Below, one piece after another: positions 219-62,476 of a stretch of DNA of 64,000 nt; positions within the stretch are counted from its first letter, which is position 1, and every line of letters begins with the position of its first letter. The position numbers and the translations under genes were made by a program. The notes under the pieces are model-generated. The model was not told the origin of the DNA. It did not search any database and saw only the letters and a list, made by a program, of their open reading frames with translations. Source of the stretch: an uncultured Gammaproteobacteria bacterium (GTDB lineage Bacteria > Patescibacteriota > Patescibacteriia > Magasanikbacterales > UBA922); contig CAZFTR010000001.1 of NCBI GenBank assembly GCA_964522405.1, positions 4,602-68,601 of the forward strand, given 5' to 3'.

Positions 219-1217
219 TCAATCCTGTTGACGATTTTTTCCATGAAATTTTTTATGTATATTTTTTAGTTCTCGGTCAGTAATGTGGGTATATATTTGG
301 GTAGTGGTGATAGAGGAGTGGCCAAGCATGCTCTGCACACTTCGAATATCTGCGCCATTCTGGAGTAAATCTGTCGCATATGAATGTCTAAGTGTGTGTG
401 GAGTTACTGGTTTTGTAATTCCAGCCATTTTTGCATATTTTTGCACACTTCTTTGAACAGATCTGGGAGTAAGCGGTATATCTTCTACAGGTTTTCCAGT
501 CTTGCCACTTACTGTCTTCTGTTTTCCGGTTCTTTTGTCATGAGAAATGAATAAATAGGGATTGATATCATATCTGGCTTCTAAATATTTCTTTATCCAA
601 TATCTGGCTTGCTCTGAAAGGAAGACAATTCTGCTTTTACCACCCTTTCCTCTTATAGTAAATTCTTCTTTTTTGAGGTTTATATCAGTTATTTTTAGCT
701 TAACTAGCTCTGACACACGAAGTCCGGCTGAAAAAAGTAATTCCAAGATTGCTTTGTCTCTAAGTGATATTAATTGCTTAGCAGAGGCTTTTTTCTTTTT
801 TTCAATTCCGGGGATTCCTTGAATCGGAGCTTCCATAAGTCTATCTAAGTCAGTTCCTTCCAGAAAACTAACTTCTCGATCTGGCATTTTCATAAGTTCT
901 ATTTTTTCCGGAGCCAAAGTCTCTACATCCCTTTTGGCTAGATATTTTAAAAATGATCTAACAGCTATAAGATGGTAATTTTGAGTATTTTTTTTGAGAG
1001 GGTCTCCATGAACATCAATAAGTCTATTGAGCCAAAGTCGATATTTACGTACTTTTTCTGCAGTTATAGCACTTGGTTTTTTATTTTCGCCAAGCCATTC
1101 AAGAAATCTGCTTAAATAAAAATGATAATTTTGTATAGTCCTATCACTACGATTTTTTTCAATTTCCAGGTATTCAAGAAATTCTTTTAAATAAATTTTC
1201 AGATTTTTTTCTGGCAT
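219..1217 (-). CDS. tyrosine site-specific recombinase, XerC/XerD-like
   Basis: The C-terminal catalytic region HTLRHSYATDLLQNGADIRSVQSMLGHSSITTTQIYTHI gives the R..H..R..Y signature of phage-integrase/Xer recombinases. The N-terminus has a SAM-like core-binding domain. Confidence 0.85.
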   Translation of the reverse strand: MPEKNLKIYLKEFLEYLEIEKNRSDRTIQNYHFYLSRFLEWLGENKKPSAITAEKVRKYRLWLNRLIDVHGDPLKKNTQNYHLIAVRSFLKYLAKRDVETLAPEKIELMKMPDREVSFLEGTDLDRLMEAPIQGIPGIEKKKKASAKQLISLRDKAILELLFSAGLRVSELVKLKITDINLKKEEFTIRGKGGKSRIVFLSEQARYWIKKYLEARYDINPYLFISHDKRTGKQKTVSGKTGKPVEDIPLTPRSVQRSVQKYAKMAGITKPVTPHTLRHSYATDLLQNGADIRSVQSMLGHSSITTTQIYTHITDRELKNIHKKFHGKNRQQD

Positions 1218-10826: not shown

Positions 10827-10900
10827 TTTTCTAAAAAAATTATAAACAGTCGCATTTCAAATGTGACTTTTTTGCTTTTAAAAACTATTACTTAAAAATT

Positions 10901-10972
10901 GCTTCGCCGTCCTCGCCTCTCTTGCTAATCTGCTTTCAGCATTAGCAAGGAGTCTGCGGATTGTCTCATCAA
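10901..10972 (+). repeat. copy 1 of a ~70-nt conserved intergenic element (candidate structured-RNA motif). The other copies are at 36644-36712 and 62304-62372
   Basis: Conserved 5' flank gcttcgccgtcctcgcc, a hairpin with stem CTTGCTAAT/ATTAGCAAG and constant loop CTGCTTTCAGC, and conserved 3' flank ctgcggattgtctcatc. Confidence 0.6.
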
Positions 10973-11039
10973 TCTTTAAGTAATACTTTTTAAAAGCAAA
11001 AATAAACTATATCTTGACCCAGCACCATAAGCCAGAGGG

Positions 11040-19329: not shown

Positions 19330-19441
19330 ATTGTAAATGCTTGTCTCGCCCAAAGGATGGGATCCCGTCCAGTGAAAATTGGCGGGAAAAGGCTTAAAAA
19401 GCCTGAGAGATGACAGCGCTGTTATCCATAGTCTCCATTGT

Positions 19442-19520
19442 CGCCCATTCCACGTTCGCCGACAAGGGACTAAGAACAGGCGGCGCGCGAGCACCAGCCA
19501 GGCGCGTGTTGATTTACCAG
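19442..19520. repeat. GC-rich 79-nt perfect direct repeat, copy 1
   Basis: Sequence cgcccattccacgttcgccgacaagggactaagaacaggcggcgcgcgagcaccagccaggcgcgtgttgatttaccag is identical to 19875-19953. It is about 60% GC in an AT-rich context. Confidence 0.9.
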
Positions 19521-20209
19521 CCACCACCTTTGTTGTCTCTGCGGTTGGCGATGTGACCTGACAACGCCAGAGGCCAGACGATCCAGGCGATGAGAGCCGG
19601 GAAGCTCAGAACTTCCTCCCTCGGCATGGGGTTCCGCCTCGACTTTTCCATGCCCAGGTCTTTGGCGATGTAGATCAGGGCGAAAATGCCCAAGAACAGG
19701 TATCCGGCCAGGATACTGAGAGCAATCAAATCACTGGTGCTCAAAACCTTTCCTCCTTTCGCGGTTTTGCAATGTTGATTATAACAGTAAATAATTTTTT
19801 TTTCTATGGTTGGTTTCCAAATAAAAACCCTCCTTTTTAAGGGGGTAATAATGGTTAAAATAGTTCCCTTTCGCCGCCCATTCCACGTTCGCCGACAAGG
19901 GACTAAGAACAGGCGGCGCGCGAGCACCAGCCAGGCGCGTGTTGATTTACCAGTCTCCTTTTTTTTCTTCTTTTCGTCTCTGATCTCGATCAGGTAGCCG
20001 GCCAACATGAAGGGGCCTGCCATCAGCCCGAAGAGCCAGATCATGACACCGAATTTACTGGTGTCGGTGGGATTTCTTTCTTCTTCGCCCTTGCCGTGGT
20101 CACCGGTGACGTACAAGAGGGCGCCGAAGCTGAGGATGGCGTAGCCCCCGACCAGGCTGAGAATCATCAGGGCAGTGCTCAAAGTTCTCTCCTTGTTGCG
20201 ATTTTGCAA
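19514..20209 (-). CDS. GC-rich tandem pair of paralogous small two-TM membrane protein ORFs (A ~19955-20194, B ~19514-19754), fused in one frame through an A8 tract
   Basis: The halves LSTALMILSLVGGYAILSFGALLYVTG... and LSTSDLIALSILAGYLFLGIFALIYIA... are clearly homologous. Each is preceded by a conserved leader, atcaaYattgcaaaaYcgc, then AAGGAG, then TTG. Half B stops at the TAA inside the 79-nt repeat (cTGGTAAatc). Half A is out of frame by one base within an A8 run (19959-19966) and reads through. Confidence 0.4.
   Translation of the reverse strand: MQNRNKERTLSTALMILSLVGGYAILSFGALLYVTGDHGKGEEERNPTDTSKFGVMIWLFGLMAGPFMLAGYLIEIRDEKKKKKETGKSTRAWLVLARRLFLVPCRRTWNGRRKGTILTIITPLKRRVFIWKPTIEKKIIYCYNQHCKTAKGGKVLSTSDLIALSILAGYLFLGIFALIYIAKDLGMEKSRRNPMPREEVLSFPALIAWIVWPLALSGHIANRRDNKGGGW
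19875..19953. repeat. GC-rich 79-nt perfect direct repeat, copy 2
   Basis: Exact 79/79 match to 19442-19520. It is followed on the minus strand by a terminator-like hairpin, ccccctTAAAAaggaggg plus a T-run (19822-19846). Confidence 0.9.
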
Positions 20210-20325
20210 TATTGATTCTAGCAGGAAATAAAATTATTGTCTACTTTGCTTATAAAGAAAAAAGCCTCACCCTAGAAAAGGCGAGGCATAGTTTTTACTA
20301 TTGTTCACTGTTTATTGATCATTGC

Positions 20326-22456: not shown

Positions 22457-22591
22457 AATATATTGTTTATATTTAACTAGAAAAAATACTGTGATTATAT
22501 TGTAGCATAGAGATAGTTTGTGATAAAGGGAGTTTATGATTAGGTGAAATTGTGTTATAGTTTAACCAATATCGACTACATGGGGAGATGT

Positions 22592-22756
22592 ATGGTTTCC
22601 AGGTTGGGAAAGGAGCCGGTGGTGCTGGTCAAGGTTGTCTGGGGCGGGCTCAGCCCGGAGGATATTGCGGTTTACCGTCAAATCGCTAGGGACACAGTGG
22701 AGCGTTCCAAGCAAAATCGCTGCCATGGATGCGGCAGACCAAAGAAGGGGGAATGA
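22592..22756 (+). CDS. GC-rich small ORF (54 aa), possibly the product of a ~260-nt GC-rich transcript; could instead be a non-coding RNA
   Basis: A TG-extended -10 (tgtTATAGT) near 22545-22556, SD GGGGAGA 5 nt before ATG 22592, and an intrinsic terminator at 22795-22822. The protein MVSRLGKEPVVLVKVVWGGLSPEDIAVYRQIARDTVERSKQNRCHGCGRPKKGE has no recognised family. Confidence 0.35.
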   Translation: MVSRLGKEPVVLVKVVWGGLSPEDIAVYRQIARDTVERSKQNRCHGCGRPKKGE

Positions 22757-22794
22757 TGGGGGGCGCCACTCCATCTCGGATTGGCAAACTCGAA

Positions 22795-22822
22795 AAAACA
22801 TGAGAGAATCATGTTTTTTTGA
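22795..22822 (+). terminator. intrinsic terminator
   Basis: aaaaaaCATGAgagaaTCATGttttttt. Confidence 0.65.
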
Positions 22823-22843
22823 TATTAAATTTATCAAAACAAA

Positions 22844-22959: not shown

Positions 22960-23631
22960 CTAGGCATCGATGGCCTCGAAGATCTGGGATCTGGGGCGGT
23001 CGGGGAGGGCGCGGGGCATGGCGTCGAGGGTCGTCATGTCCGCGTACCAGGCCTGCATGTAGCCGGTGGGACGGTGTTGGTCAGCGCTCGGCGCCGAGGC
23101 CTGGGCTCGGCTCTGGAGCAGGACGGCATTGAGCCGTTCCGGGTCGTTCTGGAACATCCAGAGCAGGAACTTCATCTGAAGCGCCTCCTCCTGGCTCATC
23201 TGGGGGATCTGGCCCGGACTGACCTTGGAGATCCGCTGACCCATGGTACGGAACAGGCCGTCGGCAGCCCTCAGCGCGGCCAGACGGTGCATCATGTTCT
23301 GGTTGTCCGGTTCCACCACTTGACTGCTCTCTTCGAGCGAAGCCCGCACCTTTTCCGGAATCTCTTCGCCGGCGGTTTCGTTGCCAGTGAAGATCAGGCG
23401 GTAGCGTGTCCGTTGACCCACGGGGATCTCGAGAATCAGTGCCAGCGGCGGGTTTTGGGCGATGGTGTACTCCAGGTAACACTCGATCATGTTTTCCGGA
23501 TCCTTGACTCCGGAGTCAGGGGGCTTGCTGTCTTCGTACGACTTCATGGCATTGTGCCAGTGCCAGAGAGTCAAGAAGAAGCCCAGGATCAGGACTGTGA
23601 TGAGGAGAGTCAGGAGGGTGAGAGAGTCCAT
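22960..23631 (-). CDS. GC-rich hypothetical protein with an N-terminal TM anchor (224 aa)
   Basis: Start MDSLTLLTLLITVLILGFFLTLW is preceded by AAGGAGG. Amino-acid composition is protein-like, whereas the overlapping plus-strand ORFs are G/R/L-rich antisense artefacts. About 58% GC. Confidence 0.55.
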   Translation of the reverse strand: MDSLTLLTLLITVLILGFFLTLWHWHNAMKSYEDSKPPDSGVKDPENMIECYLEYTIAQNPPLALILEIPVGQRTRYRLIFTGNETAGEEIPEKVRASLEESSQVVEPDNQNMMHRLAALRAADGLFRTMGQRISKVSPGQIPQMSQEEALQMKFLLWMFQNDPERLNAVLLQSRAQASAPSADQHRPTGYMQAWYADMTTLDAMPRALPDRPRSQIFEAIDA

Positions 23632-23759
23632 ATCGTGCCTCCTTGAGGCTTCCGGTTCTAGTCTGTTCAGTATTGTTGTCTTTTTTTGATAAAAAGTCAA
23701 GTCTGGAGTTTAGATTGACAAAACAACAATTTTGTCCTAATATGGGTATACAATTATAA

Positions 23760-23935
23760 AAGCGCAATACTCGCTATCAACGAGGATTCTGAGTCTCAGA
23801 AGCGCTGAAAGAAGAAAAACTTATATAAAGTTTAGTAGAATTTTCCGGGTAAGCCCGTAATAGCAGAAATTAAGAGCCACTTTGGAAGTGAGATGGTACC
23901 GCCCGATATTGGGTTCTCATGTGAGTGGTTTTTTA
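23760..23935 (+). promoter_or_regulatory. candidate T-box riboswitch leader of ileS
   Basis: A ~180-nt structured leader contains GAGAUGGUACCGCCCG, which resembles the T-box core (UGGUACCGC, 23895-23903), then a hairpin plus U-run near 23905-23934. ileS is the classic T-box-regulated gene. An Ile codon candidate (ATC, 23776-23778) sits in a loop context. Confidence 0.5.
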
Positions 23936-24083
23936 TTTATTATTAGTAAATTTGTTTAACCGTATTTATTATAAAATTCAACTCAGCTCTACAGAAATAA
24001 TTTGATATTCAGTTTAAATTGATCGCTCAACGTTTCATTTTATAATAAATACGGTTAAATTAACTCAAGCTATTAATTCATGT

Positions 24084-27053
24084 ATGCCTTACGAATCAAA
24101 TAAACATGAACTTGAAATAAAAAAGTTCTGGGACAACAACAAAATTTTTGAAAAATCTATAAATGAGCGTCCGGAAGATCAGCCCTATGTTTTTTATGAT
24201 GGTCCACCATTTGCAACCGGCTTGCCACATTATGGACATATAGTTGCCAGTTTGATGAAAGATGTTGTTCCCAGATATTGGACTATGCAAGGAAAGCGGG
24301 TTGAGCGTCTTTGGGGTTGGGATTGTCATGGTTTGCCGATTGAAAATATTGTTGAAAAAGAAATTGGATCAAAAAGTAAACAAGATATTGAAGAAATGGG
24401 AGTTGAAAAATTCAATGAGTCCTGTCGCTCAAAAGTTTTACATTATATAGATGAATGGAAAAGGACTATTCAAAGACTTGGACGCTGGGTTGATATGGAC
24501 AATGCCTACAAAACCATGGACAAAGATTATATGGAGTCAGTTTGGTGGGTTTTCAAAGAGCTTTGGGACAATGGTTTTGTTTATAAAGGATATAAATCAA
24601 TGCATGTTTGTCCACGTTGTGAGACAACACTTTCTCAGCAAGAAGTAAGTGAAGGTTACAAAGACATAAAAGATCTTTCCGCAACTGTAAAGTTTAAAAT
24701 TACCTCTACAATTTCAGATATTCATCAAGACCTGGGTGTGTGTAATGATCTCTTTGTTCTAGCTTGGACAACTACCCCTTGGACACTTCCTGGAAATGCC
24801 CTTTTGGCAGTTGGTGAGGATATTGAATATACAGTTGTTAAATTTGAAGGCTCTTGTTATGTGGTTGCCAAAGAAAGATTAATTGAAGTTTTTGATGAAA
24901 GAGAATTTGAAGTTGTTCAGCAATTAAAAGGAAAAGACCTGTTAGGTTTGGAATATGAGCCATTGTTTCCATATTATACTGATACAGAAAATGCTTTTAA
25001 GGTTGTGGCAGGAGATTTTGTAAGCACAGAAGAAGGAACAGGCGTGGTGCATATAGCTCCGGCTTTTGGTGAGGATGATTATCAAACAGGAAAAAAAGAA
25101 AAAACCGGCTGGGTCCAGCATGTTTCAATGAATGGAAAATTTAAGCCGGAAGTTGCAGATTTTGCAGGTCAGCAAGTTAAGCCAATAGAAGATCCTCAAA
25201 AAACAGATATAGAAATAATTAAATGGCTTGCTCACAATGAAAAGTTATTTTCAAAGAAAAAATATCTACATAGTTATCCGCATTGTTGGAGATGTGACAC
25301 CCCTCTAATAAATTACGCAACAGATTCCTGGTTCGTAAATGTAGAAAAATTAAAAAAGGACGCGCTTAAACATGCCAAAGAAATAAATTGGTCTCCAGAA
25401 CATATGAAAGAGGGGCGTTTTGGGAAGTGGCTAGAAGGAGCACGAGATTGGTCAATTTCTCGCCAGCGTTTTTGGGCATCAGTAATTCCAATTTGGGAAT
25501 GTGATAAGACAGGTGAATTTCATGTTATCGGTTCTGTAGAAGAACTTGAGAAATTAACCGGAGAAAAAATAGAAGACCTACATAAGCATACAGTAGATAA
25601 ACTAACTTGGAAAAATCAAAAAACAGGAGGAACTATGAAACGAATTCCAGATGTTCTTGATTGTTGGTTTGAAGCAGGTTCAATGCCTTACGCCCAAGTT
25701 CATTATCCATTTGCCAATCAAGAAAAATTTGAAGCAAGTTTTCCAGCAGAATTTATTGCCGAAGGACAAGATCAAACACGAGCCTGGTTTTATTATCTGC
25801 ATATTATTGCAACAGGTGTAAAACAAAAACATGCATTTAACAATGTGGTGGTAAATGGAATAGTTCTAGCAGAAGACGGAAAGAAGATGAGTAAGAAATT
25901 ACAAAATTATCCAGACCCAATGGTTGTGCTGGAGAAATACGGAGCAGATGCGCTTAGATACTACTTGGTGAGTTCACCGGTGATGCAAGCAGAAACTTTG
26001 AATTTTTCAGAAGAAGGTGTTCGAGAAGTTTTTAATAAGGTTGTCAATACACTTTGGAATGTAGGTAGTTTTTATGAGATGTTTGCAGATGAAAATTCAA
26101 AGTTCGATTTAGAATTGGCAAAGAATTCAAAAAATGTTTTGGATAAATGGATACTTGCCAAACTACATAGATTGCTTGAAGAAGTTACAAAAGAAATGAA
26201 TGAATACAGACTTAATGATGCATCTCGCCCAATTTTAGATTTTATATTAGATCTTTCACAGTGGTATGTGCGCAGATCAAGAGATAGATTTAAAGGTGAT
26301 GATGAAGAAGATAAAAAAGCAGCACTTGCTACGCTCCATGAAGTTCTTTTAACTCTTTCAAAAATCATGGCACCGTTTACTCCGTTTATTGCAGAGAAGA
26401 TTTATAAAGAAGTTGGTGGTGAGAAAGAATCTGTTCATTTGGATATGTGGCCAGAGGTGGATCAAAATATTTTGCTAGCAAACACGAATCTCTTAGTGGA
26501 TATGGAATCAGTCAGAGAAGTAGTTAAGCTTGGAAATTCTCTTAGAAAAGAAAACTCATTGAAAGTTAGACAGCCGCTTGCAAGTTTAAAAGCAGTTGCT
26601 ACTCTCTCAGGAGATAAAGATTATCTTGAGCAATATCAAAAAATTATTTCAGAAGAATTAAATATTAAGAAAGTTGAGTTAAGAAATTTACCTGGAAATA
26701 AAGAAATGGAAGAGATGAGAAGTTTGGCAAATGATAAAATTAAAGTTGCCGAAGATCAAAGATCTATCGTAGTCCTTAACACAGAAATAACCCCACAACT
26801 CGCCAAAGAAGGACTTCTCCGCGAAACAATCCGCGCCATAAATCAAATCAGAAAACAACAAGGCTTGATAATGCATGACCAAGTTCTTGTAGAATTTTCA
26901 ACAGAAGATAAAGTATTAAATGAAATCTTTACAAAAGCAGAATTTGCAGAAGAATTAAAAAAACAAACACTCACAAGTGAAATCAAATCAGGTGGAACTG
27001 AAGAAATAGAAATAGATAAAAGAAAAATTAAGATAATTGTGAAAAAAGCGTAA
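24084..27053 (+). CDS. ileS: isoleucine--tRNA ligase
   Basis: HIGH motif PHYGHI, KMSKS motif KMSKKL, WSISRQRFWAS and the Zn-binding CPRCE segment. 989 aa. Confidence 0.9.
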   Translation: MPYESNKHELEIKKFWDNNKIFEKSINERPEDQPYVFYDGPPFATGLPHYGHIVASLMKDVVPRYWTMQGKRVERLWGWDCHGLPIENIVEKEIGSKSKQDIEEMGVEKFNESCRSKVLHYIDEWKRTIQRLGRWVDMDNAYKTMDKDYMESVWWVFKELWDNGFVYKGYKSMHVCPRCETTLSQQEVSEGYKDIKDLSATVKFKITSTISDIHQDLGVCNDLFVLAWTTTPWTLPGNALLAVGEDIEYTVVKFEGSCYVVAKERLIEVFDEREFEVVQQLKGKDLLGLEYEPLFPYYTDTENAFKVVAGDFVSTEEGTGVVHIAPAFGEDDYQTGKKEKTGWVQHVSMNGKFKPEVADFAGQQVKPIEDPQKTDIEIIKWLAHNEKLFSKKKYLHSYPHCWRCDTPLINYATDSWFVNVEKLKKDALKHAKEINWSPEHMKEGRFGKWLEGARDWSISRQRFWASVIPIWECDKTGEFHVIGSVEELEKLTGEKIEDLHKHTVDKLTWKNQKTGGTMKRIPDVLDCWFEAGSMPYAQVHYPFANQEKFEASFPAEFIAEGQDQTRAWFYYLHIIATGVKQKHAFNNVVVNGIVLAEDGKKMSKKLQNYPDPMVVLEKYGADALRYYLVSSPVMQAETLNFSEEGVREVFNKVVNTLWNVGSFYEMFADENSKFDLELAKNSKNVLDKWILAKLHRLLEEVTKEMNEYRLNDASRPILDFILDLSQWYVRRSRDRFKGDDEEDKKAALATLHEVLLTLSKIMAPFTPFIAEKIYKEVGGEKESVHLDMWPEVDQNILLANTNLLVDMESVREVVKLGNSLRKENSLKVRQPLASLKAVATLSGDKDYLEQYQKIISEELNIKKVELRNLPGNKEMEEMRSLANDKIKVAEDQRSIVVLNTEITPQLAKEGLLRETIRAINQIRKQQGLIMHDQVLVEFSTEDKVLNEIFTKAEFAEELKKQTLTSEIKSGGTEEIEIDKRKIKIIVKKA

Positions 27054-27149
27054 TAAAAAAGTTTCCCCTCCTTTTTAAGTAGGGGCTATGCCACGTCAGT
27101 CGCGACTGACGTGGTTAGGGGGTGGTTTACTCTACACTTCTAACAAATA

Positions 27150-27176
27150 AAAAACACCCGAATCGGGTGTTTTTTA
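27150..27176 (+). terminator. intrinsic terminator after ileS
   Basis: aaaaaaCACCCGaatCGGGTGtttttt. Confidence 0.8.
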
Positions 27177-27679
27177 AATGGTGGTTTTTATGATCGCGCC
27201 ACACCGGAATTCACAATAGTTTATAAAATCCGGTGTGGCGGCGCGATCAAGTGTCTGTTCACGAGGTTGTTGTCCCTCGTTTACCAGAATCAATCCACCA
27301 CCTCTCCCTTATTTACTACTAACGCTCTTCTGGCGCTTTCGTTTTATTCTCGATAGGGAGCTGTTCTAATCGCGTTGCACGATCAGTCTAACGGGTACAG
27401 CCATGAACGGCTTCACGAACAGGCTGTTCGTATCGATCCAAACTGTTCCTGCATTGCACAGAAAACGACTGGTTTCGCGCTTTTTTGTGTGCGCGTGCTT
27501 CAGTCTCAGAATGATCGGAGTGGGTTCTTGCCGGGGTAGGTGCTACAGTCAATATATCTTGCCTTGGAATGAAGTCGAACCGGGCTTCAATCTTTGGTTT
27601 GATACTCGTGTAGAGCCTTATTCAGTCGTTCGGGTGACTGTCACACGTAGTAGGATCAGATCCTCTACGGTGCTGGTAG

Positions 27680-28141
27680 CTATCGCTTGCCGTACTTTTT
27701 ACGCAGGCTGCGACGCTCGATTTCGCGCTCCAGGAGATCCACCGCTTTTTTGGCTTCCTTGAGCCACCAGTGGCGGATGTCATGGATGTTGCCTTCTTTC
27801 AGGCACTTCCAGAGGAGCCAGAGCCAGTACTGGGTACCGTCTTCTTCGCCGTAGATCAGCGTTTCGAACGGTTCGGGGAGGTTGAAGCCCCCGTCCTTGT
27901 GCTCGGTCATCTCGAATCCCTTGTCGCCATTCTCAACTGCTGCGGCGACCAGGTCGACGAGTCTGTCCTCTCTGCGGTAGAGCTGTCTCTCCTCGCGCAT
28001 GACAGCGAGGAAATCAGTCCAGTCCTCCATGTACGCGGGGACGTAACTGAGGAACTGCTCACTCATCTCACCCACCCAGTGCTCGTGCCTATCAGCAACG
28101 AATTCCGTGTAGGAGAGATCCAAAAACTCTCTTCTATCCAT
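27680..28141 (-). CDS. GC-rich hypothetical protein (153 aa)
   Basis: Protein-like, Trp-rich acidic sequence. SD GGAG lies 7 nt before the ATG, and the 5' leader has a GC hairpin CCCCGGC-acggg-GCCGGGG at 28162-28180. About 57% GC. Confidence 0.55.
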   Translation of the reverse strand: MDRREFLDLSYTEFVADRHEHWVGEMSEQFLSYVPAYMEDWTDFLAVMREERQLYRREDRLVDLVAAAVENGDKGFEMTEHKDGGFNLPEPFETLIYGEEDGTQYWLWLLWKCLKEGNIHDIRHWWLKEAKKAVDLLEREIERRSLRKKYGKR

Positions 28142-28569
28142 CTAACACTCCGAAGCTACTGCCCCGGCCCCGTGCCGGGGAGCTCCGAGATCTCTCTCGG
28201 TTATATCTAGCAAATTTTGCAAAATATAATCGAGAGAGATTTTTGAGTTTTAAATGTCAGCTTTCAAATTATACAAACGAATTATATAATTTGGAACTGT
28301 CCCGAGGCTGAAGCTTCGGGTGAGTTTCTGGCGCTGTTGCGACCTGAGTCGCGAGGCGCAGTTGGTCTTGCTCTTAGAGTGTTGGGGGAGCTGATTGACC
28401 CTACCCCTTCTACTGATTTCGAACTTGTCGCACAGCCGGTTTTCTGGCTCTCTACCTACTCAATTGCCAACTCGTGGCATCCACATCTAGATTTCCCCGA
28501 AAGTTCAGAGAAACTCTCGGTCCACAGGAGCGGAGTTAAATCCGCATCTTCATCGATTAGAAATCGATG

Positions 28570-28872
28570 CTACTTGCTTCCCTCCTGGTGTTTCACCAGA
28601 CGTCGATGGACTTTCTCATCGGCGTAGTCCAGCTCGAGTCGGAGCATCGCGTCCTCGAAGGAGCTCAGCGCTTTCTCGACGCTGTCCGGCGTCGTCGTCT
28701 CGGTGGTGGTGATCGACTGGGAGATCGGATCGGCCCATGCATGGAGGATGCGCGTGGCACGTTTTCCGTACTTGTGGCGCGCGCCTTCGGGCATGTTGCG
28801 CATGACAGAGGTCAGTCGGTTCTCGAGCGCCTCGAGACGGACCTGGAAAAGATATTGCTCGCTTTTCTTCAT
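28570..28872 (-). CDS. GC-rich hypothetical protein (~100 aa; start ATG 28872 chosen by analogy to its paralogous leader, alternative GTG at 28893)
   Basis: A leader paralogous to the 153-aa gene: hairpin CCCTGGt-aaagg-GCCAGGG, then gcagtRgcttYggag, then 7-9 nt, then ATG. Confidence 0.45.
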   Translation of the reverse strand: MKKSEQYLFQVRLEALENRLTSVMRNMPEGARHKYGKRATRILHAWADPISQSITTTETTTPDSVEKALSSFEDAMLRLELDYADEKVHRRLVKHQEGSK

Positions 28873-29111
28873 CTTTCTTTTCTCCAAAGCCACTGCCCTG
28901 GCCCTTTACCAGGGAGCCCAAGAGATTTCCCTTGGTTAAGCGAAAAAAGCAGATAACCGCTTAAATTAGGCAAAAGCCTAAATTTTCGCTAAATCAAGGG
29001 AAATTTCAGTGAATTGTCAATAACGGCTAACAATTAATTATAGCAGGTTTTGACGGTTTTGTCAATGAGTGGTAAAATTAGATAACGACTTCAAAAATTA
29101 ACTAAAAAATT

Positions 29112-30596
29112 ATGATTAAATACACAAATGCTCCGGAATTGACCAAAAATACTGAATTTTTGATTGTTCCTGTACTTGAGGAGAAAGGTTTAGATGCTTG
29201 GACCAAGAAATTAGACCAGGAATATGGTGGACTTTTATCAAAAGCCATTGATACAGAAGAATTTGAATCAAAAAAGCTGCAAACTGTTCTACTTTTTACT
29301 TCAAATGAAAAAACTACCTATATTCTACTAGTTGGTTTGGGAGAAAAAAAGAATTTGAATATTGAAACCTGGAAACGGGTAGTTGGTGTGGGTGTTATAG
29401 CAGCACAAAGCAAAAAACAAACTAAACTTGGGCTTTATGTTTCTTCTAAGATCTTGAAAGTTTTTGATAGTAAACATCTGGCACAAGAAACAGTTGTTGC
29501 TGTTGAAACTGCTAATTATGCTTTTGATAATTACAAAGAAGAAAAAGCAAAAGTAAAATCAATTGAAAGTTTTGAATTGTTGGGAAGTTTTAGTTCTTCT
29601 GAGCAAAAAGCAATTGAAAAAGGAATTAGTGATGGGCAGGTAATTGGTCAATCAGTTAACACAGCTAGAACTCTTGGAAATACATCCCCTTCAGAAATGT
29701 TTCCAGAACAGCTTGCCAAAGAAGCTGAGAAAATCGCCAAAGTAGTTCCAGGATTAAAAACCAAGGTTTTAAATCAAACAGAAATTGAAAAATTAAAAAT
29801 GGGTTCTTTTCTTGGTGTTGCTAGTGGATCACAACATGAACCGAAATTTATAATTATGGAGTATTGGGGAGCTGCAAAATCTCAGAAACCAACTGTCCTG
29901 GTTGGAAAAGGAATCACTTTTGATTCTGGTGGGCTGTCAATCAAGACTGGAAACTATATGTGTGATATGAAGTTTGATATGCTTGGCGCTGCAACTGCCA
30001 TTGCTACTATTGCTGCTGCTGCCAGACTTAAACTAAAGAAAAATATTATTACTCTTGCTCCAACTTGTGAAAATATGCCGGGCGGAGATGCTTATCGACC
30101 AGATGACATTCTTACTGCCATGAACGGAAAAACTATTGAAGTAAAAAATACAGATGCAGAAGGAAGACTTATACTTGCAGACGCATTGTGCTATGCTAGT
30201 AAATATCAGCCAAAAGAAGTTATAGATTTTGCAACGCTTACTGGAAGTTGTATGGCTGCGCTTGGTCTTGAAAGAAATGGTTTGTTTTCTCCTGAGCAAA
30301 AAATCGCAGATAAAATACTTGAGAGTAGCAAGGCAGTAGGTGAGCAACATTGGCAACTTCCGCTTGGAGAAGAATATAGCGAGTCTATGAAGAGTGAAAT
30401 TGCAGATATTTCAAATATAAGCAGTATTAGATATGGTGGAGCAAGCACTGCCGCTGCGTTTCTGCAATTTTTTACAGATTATGCCTGGGCTCATATAGAT
30501 CTTTCTGCAAGTTACCACAAAGGAAAAGGAAAACCATGGATCAGACATGGGGCAAATGGATCTGCGGTTCAGACTATGGTTGAGTATTTGAGGTAA
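29112..30596 (+). CDS. pepA: leucyl aminopeptidase (peptidase M17)
   Basis: M17 signature NTDAEGRL and metal-binding residues conserved. Confidence 0.9.
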   Translation: MIKYTNAPELTKNTEFLIVPVLEEKGLDAWTKKLDQEYGGLLSKAIDTEEFESKKLQTVLLFTSNEKTTYILLVGLGEKKNLNIETWKRVVGVGVIAAQSKKQTKLGLYVSSKILKVFDSKHLAQETVVAVETANYAFDNYKEEKAKVKSIESFELLGSFSSSEQKAIEKGISDGQVIGQSVNTARTLGNTSPSEMFPEQLAKEAEKIAKVVPGLKTKVLNQTEIEKLKMGSFLGVASGSQHEPKFIIMEYWGAAKSQKPTVLVGKGITFDSGGLSIKTGNYMCDMKFDMLGAATAIATIAAAARLKLKKNIITLAPTCENMPGGDAYRPDDILTAMNGKTIEVKNTDAEGRLILADALCYASKYQPKEVIDFATLTGSCMAALGLERNGLFSPEQKIADKILESSKAVGEQHWQLPLGEEYSESMKSEIADISNISSIRYGGASTAAAFLQFFTDYAWAHIDLSASYHKGKGKPWIRHGANGSAVQTMVEYLR

Positions 30597-30625
30597 GTAG
30601 GGATCGCTTACGCGTTTATTAGGCT

Positions 30626-30670
30626 GGCTTGGGGTATTCGGATTTACGGATGATTCAGATAATACGGATC
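30626..30670 (+). repeat. copy a of a second dispersed intergenic repeat family (modules GGCTTGGGGTATTCGGAT and GGATTTACGGAT..ACGGATC)
   Basis: Both modules recur at 56858-56943 in a different order. The region is noticeably more GC-rich than its surroundings. Confidence 0.6.
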
Positions 30671-30736
30671 GAACAATGTGTTGGTAAATCATTATTCACT
30701 TGTTAATTATTAATTGTTAGTTGCTAGTTAAGTAGT

Positions 30737-31315
30737 ATGATTTCATACATCACCGGAAAAATACTTTCAAAAAGTAAAGTCAGTGCTGTTGTTTTGACAA
30801 CTGGCGGAGTTGGCTATGAAATTGGCCTTACAACACTTCAACTTTCTGGAATTTCAGAGGGACAAGAGATAGGTTTTTTTGCATATTTGAAAGTAAGTGA
30901 CAGTAGTCTTGATTTGTATGGATTTGAGTCAGCAGAGGAGAGAGAATTTTTCACATTGCTTCTTTCAGTTTCAGGAGTCGGACCAAAAAGCGCCATGAAT
31001 ATTCTAGGACTTGGCTCAATAGATCAGATCAAAGATGCAATAGCTCGCCAAGATGTAAAATACCTAACAGCAGTACAGGGAATGGGAAAGAAAACAGCAG
31101 AGCGAATGGTAGTAGAATTAAAATCTAAGATTGCCAAACAAGTTACGCAAGTTAGTGAAGAAAAAAATGGCGGTGTGTTAGGTGATGTGGTAGAAGGATT
31201 GGTTTCACTTGGTTATAGTCGGGATGACGCAAGAGAGGTTGCTCAGAAATTGGATAGTACAGGGAAGACAAGTGAAGATCTGCTACGTATCGCCTTGCGG
31301 ATGATGAGTAAATAG
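30737..31315 (+). CDS. ruvA: Holliday junction branch-migration protein RuvA
   Basis: N-terminal MISYITGKL...GVGYEI and a helix-hairpin-helix region (GVGPKSAMNIL) match RuvA. 192 aa. Confidence 0.85.
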   Translation: MISYITGKILSKSKVSAVVLTTGGVGYEIGLTTLQLSGISEGQEIGFFAYLKVSDSSLDLYGFESAEEREFFTLLLSVSGVGPKSAMNILGLGSIDQIKDAIARQDVKYLTAVQGMGKKTAERMVVELKSKIAKQVTQVSEEKNGGVLGDVVEGLVSLGYSRDDAREVAQKLDSTGKTSEDLLRIALRMMSK

Positions 31316-31324
31316 GAACTAAAA

Positions 31325-31541
31325 TAAATAAAAAATCGGTGTTGAGCCGATTTTTTTATTTATGGGTATTTTAAAATAATTGGGTATGTCGCTTCACATC
31401 CCCGAGCCAAAGTACAGAGTGGTTAGTTCAGCTCTCGCCATTAATGCGCGGTACTGGCGAAAGACCTACGCATCTTCAATAAGGACACACTCTCCTCCTG
31501 AATAGGAGCCGAAGCACCTTCCCATAAAGATGTGAAGCGAC
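31325..31541 (-). ncRNA. candidate small RNA (~215 nt) with its own promoter, a 13-bp closing helix and an intrinsic terminator
   Basis: Minus-strand promoter TTGACG(31576-31571)-17nt-TAACAT(31553-31548), TSS near 31541. A 13-bp closing helix pairs GUCGCUUCACAUC with GAUGUGAAGCGAC (31529-31541 / 31388-31400) around a GC-rich ~130-nt core containing a GCUUCGGC hairpin. It ends at terminator tcggctcaacaccga plus a T-run (31336-31350; this hairpin also terminates ruvA). No ORF. Confidence 0.5.
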
Positions 31542-31595
31542 AGGAGTATGTTAGCACTTTGGTTTTTTGGCGTCAAAAAAGTGAGAAAAAGTTTC

Positions 31596-31805
31596 CTATT
31601 TTGTTTTGAGTAAATTATAAATGGCTGCGATTATAAAAACTAACTGGAGAATAATAAAGATTAGATCTCCAATATAAATACTATATATTTCTAAACAGAG
31701 ACCGCCAATTATATAAAGAATATTCTGATTTTTTCTTTTTTTGGTAATTATTCCTATGGAGATAAGCAATAATCCGATTGCTCCGATAATTTTGAAGATG
31801 CTCAT
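31596..31805 (-). CDS. small membrane protein (69 aa)
   Basis: Two hydrophobic helices. 4-nt overlap with the upstream ORF in a minus-strand operon with mutM. Confidence 0.4.
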   Translation of the reverse strand: MSIFKIIGAIGLLLISIGIITKKRKNQNILYIIGGLCLEIYSIYIGDLIFIILQLVFIIAAIYNLLKTK

Positions 31806-36582: not shown

Positions 36583-36643
36583 ATATGTTTTTATATTTAT
36601 TTCTTCTTTGGTTATAATTTTAGAGTATATTTTATTAAACTAG

Positions 36644-36712
36644 CTTCGCCGTCCTCGCCTCTCTTGTTGATTTGCTTTCAGCATCAACAAGGTGGCTGTG
36701 GATTGTCTCATC
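36644..36712 (+). repeat. copy 2 of the ~70-nt conserved intergenic element
   Basis: gcttcgccgtcctcgcctct-CTTGTTGAT-ttgctttcagc-ATCAACAAG-gtggctgtggattgtctcatc. The stem carries compensatory changes relative to copy 1. Confidence 0.6.
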
Positions 36713-36805
36713 TACTTTAATAAAATATACTCTAAAATTATAACAACTGATTTCAATAAAAAGGGATCTTATTAGAATCATCCCGCCTATATTGTAGTTT
36801 GTAAA

Positions 36806-46093: not shown

Positions 46094-47086
46094 ATGAGAT
46101 TTGGTCTTGAGGCTGAATTTCTGCTCGAAAACATCAAGGTCGATCAAGCGTTGGAGCTTGGGATCCCTGGTGTGACGAGAGAGTTCTTTGACATGATGGT
46201 GGAAGTCGTGACTGGCATCCATCAAACAAGGGGAGAAGCAGTAGAGGAGCTTCGCGATCGTACCATTGCCTTGCAGAGGGGTGGGGCAGTGCTTCATCCA
46301 TTTGCTTCGCATGCCTTTGGTGATCCCTGGGACAGGGTGGGGTTTGAAAGTGTGACCGGAGTAAGCGACTATTACCGTTGGGTGTACTACGTAGCTTGCC
46401 AGAATCCGCTTGAGCTTCACCACGTTGGGATCCACATCAACGCTTCTCAGGCTGGGTTGGTGGGTGACGCACTGATTCATGCCACTAACTGGTTGCGCTG
46501 CTTGAACTTCTTGTTCATTTTGCTCGGTTCCAACTCTCCGCTTCAGCGAGGTTTGCCTTCAGGATGTCTCTCCAGGCGTTCTTACTTCTATCCAAACCGG
46601 TATGACGTACCGCTTTGGTGTGGAGAGGCTAGTTTCAGAGCCTGGGTGCGGCAGGAGGAGGCTCTCGGCAAGATCTATCCTGGAAAAGCGCGTTGCTGGA
46701 TGTCGGTTTGCCCTCGGCTCGAGGGCGATAAGATCGATTCTGAGCTCGAGAGGATTGAGCTCAGATCGCTCGACAGTGGTGCCAACCTGTCGTGGGAGGT
46801 GCTGGAGGGATGTTGTCAGCTCCTCGAGCGCATTGTGGTCTACTCAGGCCATGGTTCAGAGCTCCCTGTTGACATTGATCAAATCCAGTTCAATGACAAG
46901 GCTGTAGCTCGTCTTGGCCGGCAAGCAACGCTCTTGTTTGAGGGTCGGAGCCGTCAAGCAGAGGAATTGGCCAGGTATTGGTGTCAGGGAATTGAGTCGC
47001 TTGAACAAGTTCTGGACTACGGTTCACAGGCTGAAAAAATCCTGAACCAGATCCAGGATTCTGGGGTCCAAACCCAAAGGAGGTAG
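46094..47086 (+). CDS. GC-rich carboxylate-amine ligase, glutamate-cysteine ligase family 2 (GCS2/YbdK-like)
   Basis: The N-terminal MRFGLEAEFLL block matches the GCS2-family ExE start. 330 aa, about 58% GC against ~35% in the flanks. Strong SD AAGGAGGTG. Confidence 0.5.
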   Translation: MRFGLEAEFLLENIKVDQALELGIPGVTREFFDMMVEVVTGIHQTRGEAVEELRDRTIALQRGGAVLHPFASHAFGDPWDRVGFESVTGVSDYYRWVYYVACQNPLELHHVGIHINASQAGLVGDALIHATNWLRCLNFLFILLGSNSPLQRGLPSGCLSRRSYFYPNRYDVPLWCGEASFRAWVRQEEALGKIYPGKARCWMSVCPRLEGDKIDSELERIELRSLDSGANLSWEVLEGCCQLLERIVVYSGHGSELPVDIDQIQFNDKAVARLGRQATLLFEGRSRQAEELARYWCQGIESLEQVLDYGSQAEKILNQIQDSGVQTQRR

Positions 47087-62259: not shown

Positions 62260-62303
62260 ATGTTGTTTTGACTTTTTGCGTTTGATTTTTTCTCTAAATC
62301 CTC

Positions 62304-62372
62304 CTTCGCCGTCCTCGGTTCTATTGTTGATCTGCTTTCAGCATCAACAATGTGCCTGCGGATTGTCTCATG
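62304..62372 (+). repeat. copy 3 of the ~70-nt conserved intergenic element
   Basis: ttcgccgtcctcggttct-ATTGTTGAT-ctgctttcagc-ATCAACAAT-gtgcctgcggattgtctcatg. The stem is again kept by compensatory changes. TGACTTTTTGC lies upstream, as in copy 1. Confidence 0.6.
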
Positions 62373-62476
62373 ATTTTTTAGAGAAAAAATCAATATAATT
62401 CATAAATTTATTCTACTACACATTTCAGAGATCAAATATAGATCTTTCAGCTATCTCCGAAGATGGATGCCCTGCG

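Follow-up and report, generated by a model that had tools for sequence, protein, structure and literature searches.

In trp-type attenuators and in riboswitch platforms, helices 1:2 and 3:4 of the leader are mutually exclusive with helix 2:3. The leaders of lambda N and T7 are processed by RNase III, and the type I toxin genes tisB and zorO give rise to primary transcripts that are translationally inert. Here we describe two structured leaders, L1 and L2, that precede two minus-strand orphan genes for proteins of 153 and 100 amino acids (aa) in an uncultured bacterium. Both lie in a 64,000-nucleotide (64-kb) stretch of contig CAZFTR010000001.1 (assembly GCA_964522405.1, positions 4,602 to 68,601 of the forward strand), hereafter the window. 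The predicted folds of L1 and L2 have a common layout: a long imperfect stem (S1), a competing hairpin A, a GC-rich hairpin B, a GGAG Shine-Dalgarno (SD) sequence and the ATG start codon. Tentatively, we read the two leaders as copies of one ~105-160-nucleotide (nt) leader module, perhaps with its promoter, that would act on the mRNA.

Among described systems, the closest parallel seems to be the PeSL cassettes of T4-type phages. In each of these repeated modules a consensus sigma-70 promoter is combined with a G/C-rich stem-loop containing G-T pairs, an SD sequence and a start codon; the modules lie directly upstream of unrelated ORFans in variable regions, which they are thought to regulate, and are also thought to serve as homology patches for modular gene shuffling by recombination (PMC2839356; PMC4122927). 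Correia elements of Neisseria are high-copy, transposon-like repeats that have defined terminal repeats and supply promoters (PMC2649163). Integron attC sites carry at the base of their stem an R box, RYYYAAC with GTTRRRY, that includes a conserved AAC triplet (PMC5027507).

Results

Two orphan genes are preceded by homologous leaders

L1 and L2 (coordinates in Table 1) align locally from TAACC to GGAG over 57 columns, with 44 of 56 positions identical and one indel. The alignment scores 29, compared with 9.1 ± 1.4 (maximum 16) for 2000 dinucleotide shuffles and 16 for the next-best site in the window. An earlier note on positions 28142-28210, which are the 3' half of L1, had called the two leaders homologous, and the score bears this out. 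Similarity persists in weaker form for ~45 nt upstream of the 57-nt block, and the element spans at least 28247..28142 in the leader of the 153-aa gene and 29011..28873 in that of the 100-aa gene. The copies have diverged by ~21% within the block and by more upstream; the similarity of the S1 5' arms and their flanks is modest, being equalled by 38 of 2000 shuffles. Hairpin B is followed in both leaders by GCAGTRGCTTYGGAG, and the 17-mer GGGCAGTRGCTTYGGAG has exactly two sites in the window, even when 3 mismatches are allowed. GGAG and ATG, whose spacing the earlier note put at 7-9 nt, are 6 nt apart before the 153-aa gene and 9 nt apart before the 100-aa gene.

Sequence comparison supports the view that the two leaders are homologous while the two genes are not. 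BLASTP between the 153-aa and 100-aa products returned only a 7-residue patch (E 0.098), and a search for similarity between the 3' flanks of the genes found none. The patch itself, RKKYGKR (27684-27704) and RHKYGKR (28760-28780), has 16 of 21 DNA bases identical and is not significant.

Changes between the two copies preserve the predicted helices

In L1, S1 is a 65-bp imperfect palindrome with two core helices (28240..28231 with 28199..28190, and 28229..28222 with 28208..28201). The 12-bp palindrome ATTTTGCAAAAT (28214-28225), to which the earlier note had drawn attention, does exist; rather than standing alone, it is a fragment of this 65-bp palindrome, which has a counterpart in the other leader. 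In L2, a 36-nt insert between the arms (28982..28947) is predicted to make two small hairpins. Among the close inverted repeats of the window, the two S1 stems rank second and third in length, and neither is followed by a U-tract on the sense strand. When pairs are numbered from a G:C pair shared by both copies (28231:28199 in L1, 28995:28934 in L2), the stretch from -9 to +7 holds 10 identical pairs, 6 that are changed on both sides and one that is lost. All six two-sided changes stay paired (C:G to U:A twice, U:A to C:G twice, U:A to A:U, and A:U to G:C). Four further two-sided differing pairs lie deeper in S1, where homology is doubtful. At the centre the sequence has been wholly replaced (1 nt versus 36 nt), with the arms still paired.

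Both hairpins B lie as the earlier note had written them, at 28180..28162 and 28914..28896 on the minus strand. The C:G to T:A double change that it reported is real and keeps the stem, and the closing pair changes too, from C:G to T:G; by itself, hairpin B is thermodynamically ordinary (z ~ -0.9). Hairpin A of L1 differs from that of L2 by one compensatory G:C to A:U change and one A:U to G.U change. Because the 3' arm of S1 (CCGAGAG in L1, CCAAGGG in L2) is also the 5' arm of hairpin A, the two structures are mutually exclusive, and a G-to-A change in this common arm is answered by C-to-T in both alternative partners. Homology and structure-keeping changes (six in S1, and one plus a G.U pair in each of hairpins A and B) uphold that part of the earlier interpretation, whereas its riboregulator or protein-binding hairpin and its co-regulated 'cassettes' go beyond what these comparisons establish.

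The earlier note had also called for both leaders to be aligned and folded. The RNAalifold consensus recovered S1, pairing of CUC on the 3' side of S1 with GAG of GGAG, a 5-bp GRGCU:RGCUU helix enclosing hairpin B, and hairpin B itself. The G.U pairs of the 5-bp helix and of hairpins A and B are possible only on the sense strand of the genes. Strand preference is thus split by domain: S1 favours the + strand (fold z on the sense versus the + strand, -6.6 versus -8.5 in L1 and -7.0 versus -9.7 in L2), and the 3' domain, composed of hairpins A and B and the helix around B, favours the minus strand.

Pairing was scored over S1 and hairpin B on a trimmed alignment in which the apex of S1 was replaced by GAAA. 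Paired cells made up 88.9% of this alignment, compared with 28-52% when the partners were slid, and there were 7 two-sided changes, compared with 0-1 in the slid controls; 3 of 500 shuffles reached the observed values. Under a null model that places the 16 changed bases randomly among the 48 paired positions, the probability of at least 7 two-sided changes is 7e-5, and for 7 random two-sided changes the probability that each leaves a standard pair is 3e-3. On these comparisons the helical structure of the leaders is well supported, with the proviso that quasi-palindrome correction at the DNA level could likewise yield symmetric changes.

Predicted accessibility of the SD sequence depends on the 5' arm of S1

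In the full-length leaders, the predicted probability that the SD sequence is unpaired is 0.01 for L1 and 0.11-0.20 for L2, and in the minimum-energy fold of L2 GGAG pairs with UCUCU (28925..28921). Folds of truncated L2 that lack the 5' arm of S1 form hairpins A and B. The corresponding probability is 0.62 for transcripts starting from 28982, 0.87 from 28946 and 0.28 from 28938, with hairpin A present in all three. L1 truncations starting at 28214 and 28203 gave ~0.6; in their minimum-energy folds the 3' arm of S1 pairs with the coding sequence instead of making hairpin A.

Upstream of L2 lies a consensus promoter, P2, which overlaps a promoter-like site for pepA that points the other way (29050-29078, + strand). 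P2 would set the transcription start of the 100-aa gene at ~29030, and from its position the leader would therefore be ~158 nt long and contain all of S1. For the 153-aa gene two candidates are given in Table 1, and the gene might instead be transcribed by read-through from P2 or the upstream gene. We also noted a 27-nt stretch (28293-28319) on the upstream side of the promoter region of L1 that shows 74% complementarity to hairpin B plus its tail (28150-28176), with a perfect 8-mer (CCGAAGCT/AGCTTCGG) that takes in the first two SD bases; this complementarity would be relevant only to read-through transcripts and may be chance.

Table 1. Features of the two leaders, their genes and the surrounding island (window coordinates)
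Feature	Coordinates	Strand	Details
Leader L1, predicted 5' untranslated region of the 153-aa gene	28142..28261	-	minimum-energy fold -59.6 kcal/mol; z -6.8 (141-nt version)
Leader L2, predicted 158-nt 5' untranslated region of the 100-aa gene	28873..29030	-	full-length minimum-energy fold -61.8 kcal/mol
S1 of L1	28183..28247	-	arms 28247..28216 and 28214..28183; 32 nt, 81% complementary, 1 nt between
S1 of L2	28922..29007	-	arms 29007..28983 and 28946..28922; 25 nt, 88% complementary
Hairpin A of L1	28185..28200	-	CCGAGA-GAGA-TCTCGG (86-nt fold)
Hairpin A of L2	28918..28935	-	CCAAGGG-AAAT-CTCTTGG; forms in folds without the S1 5' arm
Hairpin B of L1	28162..28180	-	CCCCGGC-ACGGG-GCCGGGG
Hairpin B of L2	28896..28914	-	CCCTGGT-AAAGG-GCCAGGG
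GGAG SD of the 153-aa gene	28148..28151	-	6 nt before ATG 28141
GGAG SD of the 100-aa gene	28882..28885	-	9 nt before ATG 28872
Promoter P2 of the 100-aa gene	29037..29065	-	TTGACA-17 nt-TATAAT, TG before the -10 box; 12/12 consensus positions
Candidate promoter P1 of the 153-aa gene	28268..28296	-	TTCCAA-17 nt-TATAAT, read from the sequence
Alternative candidate promoter of the 153-aa gene	28267..28239	-	TTGAAA-17-AAAAAT, weaker, listed by promoter scan
153-aa orphan gene	27680..28141	-	GC 0.56, GC3 0.74, GC2 0.33
100-aa orphan gene	28570..28872	-	GC 0.59, GC3 0.77, GC2 0.40
GC-rich island (~2 kb)	27054..29111		~47-65% GC in 120-nt windows; genome ~35% GC
ileS	24084-27053	+	left flank of the island
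pepA	29112-30596	+	right flank of the island

Searches recover only the two copies

The earlier note had proposed a hunt for further copies, and neither the window, the genome, metagenome and viral scans nor Rfam yielded a third. With filters switched off, a covariance model built from the element recovered from the window just these two copies, along with their echoes on the reverse strand. Pattern scans for GGCCNGGGCAGTNGCTTNGGAG gave 10 matches among GTDB representatives and 11 in JGI metagenomes, none with the 5' arm of hairpin B; most of these appear inside unrelated, mostly GC-rich sequence, and we regard them as chance matches. Three patterns scanned against IMG/VR gave 0, 47 and 0 matches, and the 47 were unrelated and lacked the hairpin. 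Blastn of the whole island against plasmid and phage collections returned nothing. At the gathering score, Rfam 15 matched only a tRNA across the window, and a permissive Rfam search of 26900-29300 gave only generic long-hairpin miRNA-precursor matches, far under the cut-offs.

The two genes lie in a GC-rich island between housekeeping genes

The window is ~35% GC and carries housekeeping genes including ileS, pepA, ruvA, fpg, gyrA, a trxB-like gene, rpe and rpiB; its intergenic regions are broken up by several short GC-rich islands. The island that holds the two orphan genes is not an assembly artefact, because a contig (L018) from an independent Logan assembly of another run is 100% identical to window positions 27089-31709 and links the island with pepA and ruvA; on this ground an assembly chimera was rejected. 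Logan contigs of SRR8146440 stop at the island edges (27209 and 29082) and within L1 (28142-28159), where two of them, L001 and L002, overlap by 18 nt, while in SRR8146441 one contig spans the region. The breaks could reflect a coverage drop at a GC hairpin or population variation at the leader.

Both orphan open reading frames (ORFs) show clear minus-strand coding periodicity, a signature missing from the long opposite-strand ORFs. Their GC contents, given as ~57% in the earlier note, are 0.56 and 0.59. GC content at third codon positions (GC3; GC2 in Table 1 refers to second positions) is 0.74-0.77 in the orphan genes, compared with 0.23-0.24 in ileS and pepA, and both orphan genes are foreign in composition. 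No credible homologue of either product was found in Pfam, NCBIfam, PHROGs, PADLOC or PDB sequences. Among 5.8 billion clustered proteins, a word-indexed search likewise gave no homologue of either, the 100-aa protein matching only itself, and a full HMMER scan with the 153-aa protein as its only query gave none among 1.84 billion representatives. The AlphaFold model of the 153-aa protein (predicted local distance difference test score 42) is too poor for structure searching. In the protein collection the 90% clusters of IleRS and PepA have one member each, so the organism is without a close relative there.

The regions 3' of the orphan genes, 27180-27680 (~500 nt) and 28270-28570 (~300 nt), are ~50% GC and non-coding, with a weak residual codon-position GC bias, and may be decayed genes. 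The left end of the island holds, in order, a perfect 24-bp palindrome (27091-27114), a perfect bidirectional terminator (27148-27176) and a ~57-bp palindrome (27191-27248).

Other elements in the window

A three-copy intergenic repeat occurs at 10876-10995, 36618-36737 and 62278-62397, with a conserved core of ~75 nt. Read on the minus strand, it runs ATGAGACAATCCGCAG..CCTTGTTGATGCTGAAAGCAGATCAACAAG..GAGGACGGCGAAG, and its hairpin has stayed paired by way of compensatory changes. Two of the copies immediately precede genes on the minus strand, namely gyrA and one that is dUTPase-like, and no Rfam family matched the repeat.

Another GC-rich island, 19340-20215, carries a tandem pair of paralogous genes for small membrane proteins; both start with TTG, and each has a TGnTAnAAT promoter-like box and a short leader. 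A 102-nt 3' repeat is common to both genes at 90% identity (19442-19543 and 19875-19976), and the layout resembles type I toxin loci. The motif TTGCAAAAY, said in the earlier note to recur in these leaders, has 9 sites in the window where 5.6 would be expected; as 12 of 100 shuffles contain at least that many, it does not recur more often than chance allows.

Upstream of ileS, 23748-23921 (+) is a T-box-like leader (40.5 bits, E 4.5e-7, below the Rfam cut-off), and between it and the ileS start lies the longest close inverted repeat in the window (23955-24059), with 28-nt arms that are 93% complementary. The GC-rich non-coding stretch 22565-22830 (+; z -2.55), with a strong terminator at its end, suggests an unclassified small RNA; it adjoins 22960-23634 (-), an ORF of ~61% GC and ~224 aa in a putative frame, which matched no family. 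A 53% GC gene at 46094-47086 (+) is weakly similar to glutamate-cysteine ligase family 2 and YbdK-type carboxylate-amine ligases; a host-like promoter region of its own precedes it, and it lacks a structured leader.

Discussion

In our best reading, which we hold tentatively, the leader module is laid out as promoter, S1, hairpin A, hairpin B, GGAG and ATG, with only a weak candidate promoter in the case of the 153-aa gene. In the primary transcript S1 would form and free the pyrimidine stretch (CUC/UCUCU) just 3' of it, which could then pair with GGAG around hairpin B and keep translation low. Should the 5' arm of S1 be removed or displaced, the 3' arm and the pyrimidine stretch might refold into hairpin A, which would cap the new 5' end and leave GGAG exposed. 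We favour a quiet primary transcript because the leaders have the geometry of a four-segment switch and S1 has a length that fits a double-strand RNase substrate; the most likely trigger would be cleavage of the 22-24-bp stem by an enzyme such as RNase III. The repeated module might also offer a homology patch for swapping unrelated genes, as in PeSL cassettes. Action at the RNA level, the switch and its trigger, the role in gene shuffling and the transcription starts are all things that we infer from the sequence.

Several observations weigh against this reading. The structural case rests on two copies, which is below what covariation statistics of the R-scape type call for, and the pairs that would sequester the SD are invariant between the copies and therefore lack covariation support. 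The partners with which SD and AUG are predicted to pair differ in detail between L1 and L2. Neither the two promoters nor the first five codons of the two genes resemble each other beyond chance, and the promoter of the 153-aa gene is weak or uncertain. Occlusion of the SD is not in itself evidence, because many shuffled leaders occlude it equally well: when the upstream leader was shuffled, 25 of 200 sequences (L1) and 62 of 200 (L2) did so at least to the same degree. Lastly, S1 is stabler on the + strand (-36.2 versus -28.5 kcal/mol in L1, -41.5 versus -37.1 kcal/mol in L2), because the sense strand has conserved A/C mismatches at two positions, -10 and +1, where the + strand has G.U pairs.

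A serious rival, albeit an unlikely one, takes the S1 palindromes for a DNA-level repeat akin to REPIN, MITE or Correia elements that came to lie upstream of both genes by happenstance, with symmetric changes that arose by template-switch (quasi-palindrome) correction or from transposition constraints, not from RNA selection. Such a repeat would sit well with the better + strand fold of S1 and its rank as second and third among the close inverted repeats of the window, the longest being another intergenic palindrome; the genome also has a second structured intergenic repeat family, designated D1, and Correia elements too give their neighbours promoters and RNase III-sensitive hairpins (PMC2649163). 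Yet the best-conserved homology lies outside the palindrome and runs through hairpin B to GGAG, and the arms differ at 6-10 positions between the copies, unlike sequence-specific transposase ends. The usual marks of REPIN, MITE or Correia membership were not seen within the window: instead of many near-identical copies there are two diverged ones in 64 kb and none in public scans, inspection of the termini by eye showed no target duplication, and no cognate transposase or RAYT gene was noticed near the island, the window not having been systematically searched for one. Still less likely, in our view, is a neutral relic, in which duplication or recombination copied one leader before the second gene and the stems do nothing. 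The copies are only two and adjacent, in an island with apparently decayed non-coding DNA, and plain tandem duplication did occur in the island 19340-20215. A relic, however, would hardly be expected to keep every helix despite ~21% divergence in the 57-nt block, to collect 7 two-sided changes with essentially no one-sided disruptive ones (improbable under random change, by both probabilities given above), or to have the centre of S1 replaced and yet arms that still pair.

It is improbable that S1 is a recombination site used as folded single-stranded DNA, akin to integron attC, which would mark the boundaries of gene cassettes. The hairpins of 65 and 86 nt are imperfect, with a variable apex (1 nt versus 36 nt, branched) and a structure that is conserved while the sequence diverges; the strand complementary to the genes is stabler by 4-8 kcal/mol and bears G:T mispairs, as is reported for attC bottom strands (PMC5027507); and 734 bp separate the two sites, which point the same way and lie between orphan genes that are unrelated and foreign in composition. 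Hairpin size, within the ~57-141 nt of attC sites, and strand bias are those of attC, but the RYYYAAC/GTTRRRY box is missing at the base of both stems (CTCTCTCG/CGAGAGAG and CCCTTG/CAAGGG). The AAC/GTT-like boxes ATATAAC and GCTTAAC are inside the stem, and GTTAGAT is found only in L1, 54 nt off, at the start codon. Near the position of the attC L-box, S1 has conserved 1x1 mismatches, not one-sided bulged bases. Homology runs on for ~50 nt beyond the stem, as far as the ribosome-binding site, a stretch that in an integron would be part of the following, unrelated cassette, and the genes here seem to carry their own promoters. The only tyrosine recombinase of the window (219-1217), 26 kb away, is XerC/XerD-like, with 250 bits to XerD and 139 bits to the integron-integrase model (cut-off 265). 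An attC identity was rejected for want of the R box, the integrase and promoterless cassettes. We consider it very improbable that the long stems serve the + strand, whether by terminating transcription or by belonging to antisense RNAs that face the gene starts: the + strand folds are the stronger, and ATTTTTGAGTTTT follows the + strand stem in L1, whereas that of L2 has no U-tract, a scan gave no + strand promoter-like site in or downstream of the genes reading into the stems, the perfect terminator at 27148-27176 already stops ileS transcription, and the 3' domain favours the minus strand. That the leaders are RNA thermometers, which free the ribosome-binding site on warming, is hardly credible; both leaders, folded at full length, are predicted to have the SD paired, but in silico it stays closed up to 55 °C (probability of being unpaired at most 0.05 in L1 and 0.11 in L2), and there is no ROSE or fourU signature and no Rfam match.

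Two specific candidates were rejected. A trp-type leader-peptide attenuator was dismissed as neither leader has a small ORF with an SD and a standard start, or a U-tract after the 3:4 helix. A guanidine-II (mini-ykkC) riboswitch needs two GC-rich hairpins with ACGR loops, whereas the loop of hairpin B is ACGGG in L1 and AAAGG in L2, and Rfam gave no match at E up to 10.

Beyond the leader module as we read it, a long shot would be a portable, structure-defined 'expression adaptor' for captured foreign genes, in which gating of translation via RNA processing is combined with an exchange joint, as a cassette system distinct from integrons. The joint might work by homology, or as a folded-DNA recombination site recognised by shape, and the genes so gated would be newly acquired and possibly harmful ones in an uncultured bacterium with a small genome.

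Comparison with known systems

An attC site and S1 are alike in being imperfect hairpins of conserved structure, divergent sequence and variable apex that lie between unrelated orphan genes. They differ in the AAC/GTT core, which S1 lacks at its stem base, and in the homology that reaches into the ribosome-binding site of the next gene. With RNase III-processed leaders and Correia elements the module has in common a long, imperfect, double-stranded stem of about two turns in a 5' untranslated region or between cistrons, cleavage of which alters message stability or translation in the known systems. Unlike in Correia elements, the conserved part of the module runs past the palindrome to the ribosome-binding site, and RNase cleavage is here only proposed. 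The tisB and zorO messages likewise have a long structured 5' untranslated region predicted to hide the ribosome-binding site, and here too 5' processing is proposed to activate translation; the proteins at this locus, however, are soluble-looking and of 100 and 153 aa, not small hydrophobic peptides, and no antisense RNA gene was identified at the module.

The switch logic would be that of an attenuator. The four segments of the module are the 5' arm of S1, its 3' arm, the pyrimidine stretch and the SD region; helices 1:2 and 3:4 would close the SD and helix 2:3 (hairpin A) would open it, and both alternatives are kept in both copies. In contrast to known attenuators and riboswitches, the module has no leader peptide, terminator or recognisable ligand aptamer and no Rfam match, and its 1:2 helix is far longer than usual.

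With PeSL cassettes, the module has the same parts list, and its SD and start codon stand at the 3' end, before ORFans. Its promoter is a full consensus one at L2; at L1 there are only the two imperfect candidates (TTCCAA-17-TATAAT or TTGAAA-17-AAAAAT), and homology between the promoters of the two copies is not demonstrable. The two differ in copy number, ~50 per phage genome versus two in a bacterial chromosomal island. They also differ in genomic context, since the flanks here are housekeeping genes (ileS, pepA, ruvA, fpg and gyrA) and there were no PHROG matches, and in the position and nature of the stem. PeSL stem-loops lie in or next to the promoter and act as terminators, whereas the stems of the module lie in the leader, at least 20-30 nt downstream of the -10 box and without a U-tract. 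On these three counts we do not class the module as a PeSL cassette; it also adds the much longer stem S1 and a competing hairpin, and has no sequence similarity to PeSL elements. The reach of the comparison is limited to two copies in one uncultured organism, both before genes without an assigned function. If functional, the module would constitute a new motif among structured leaders, one that Rfam lacks; it would illustrate how genes acquired horizontally and remote in base composition are wired for expression in an AT-rich, small-genome bacterium, and could carry the idea of a 'mobile regulatory cassette' from T4-type phages over to bacterial chromosomes.

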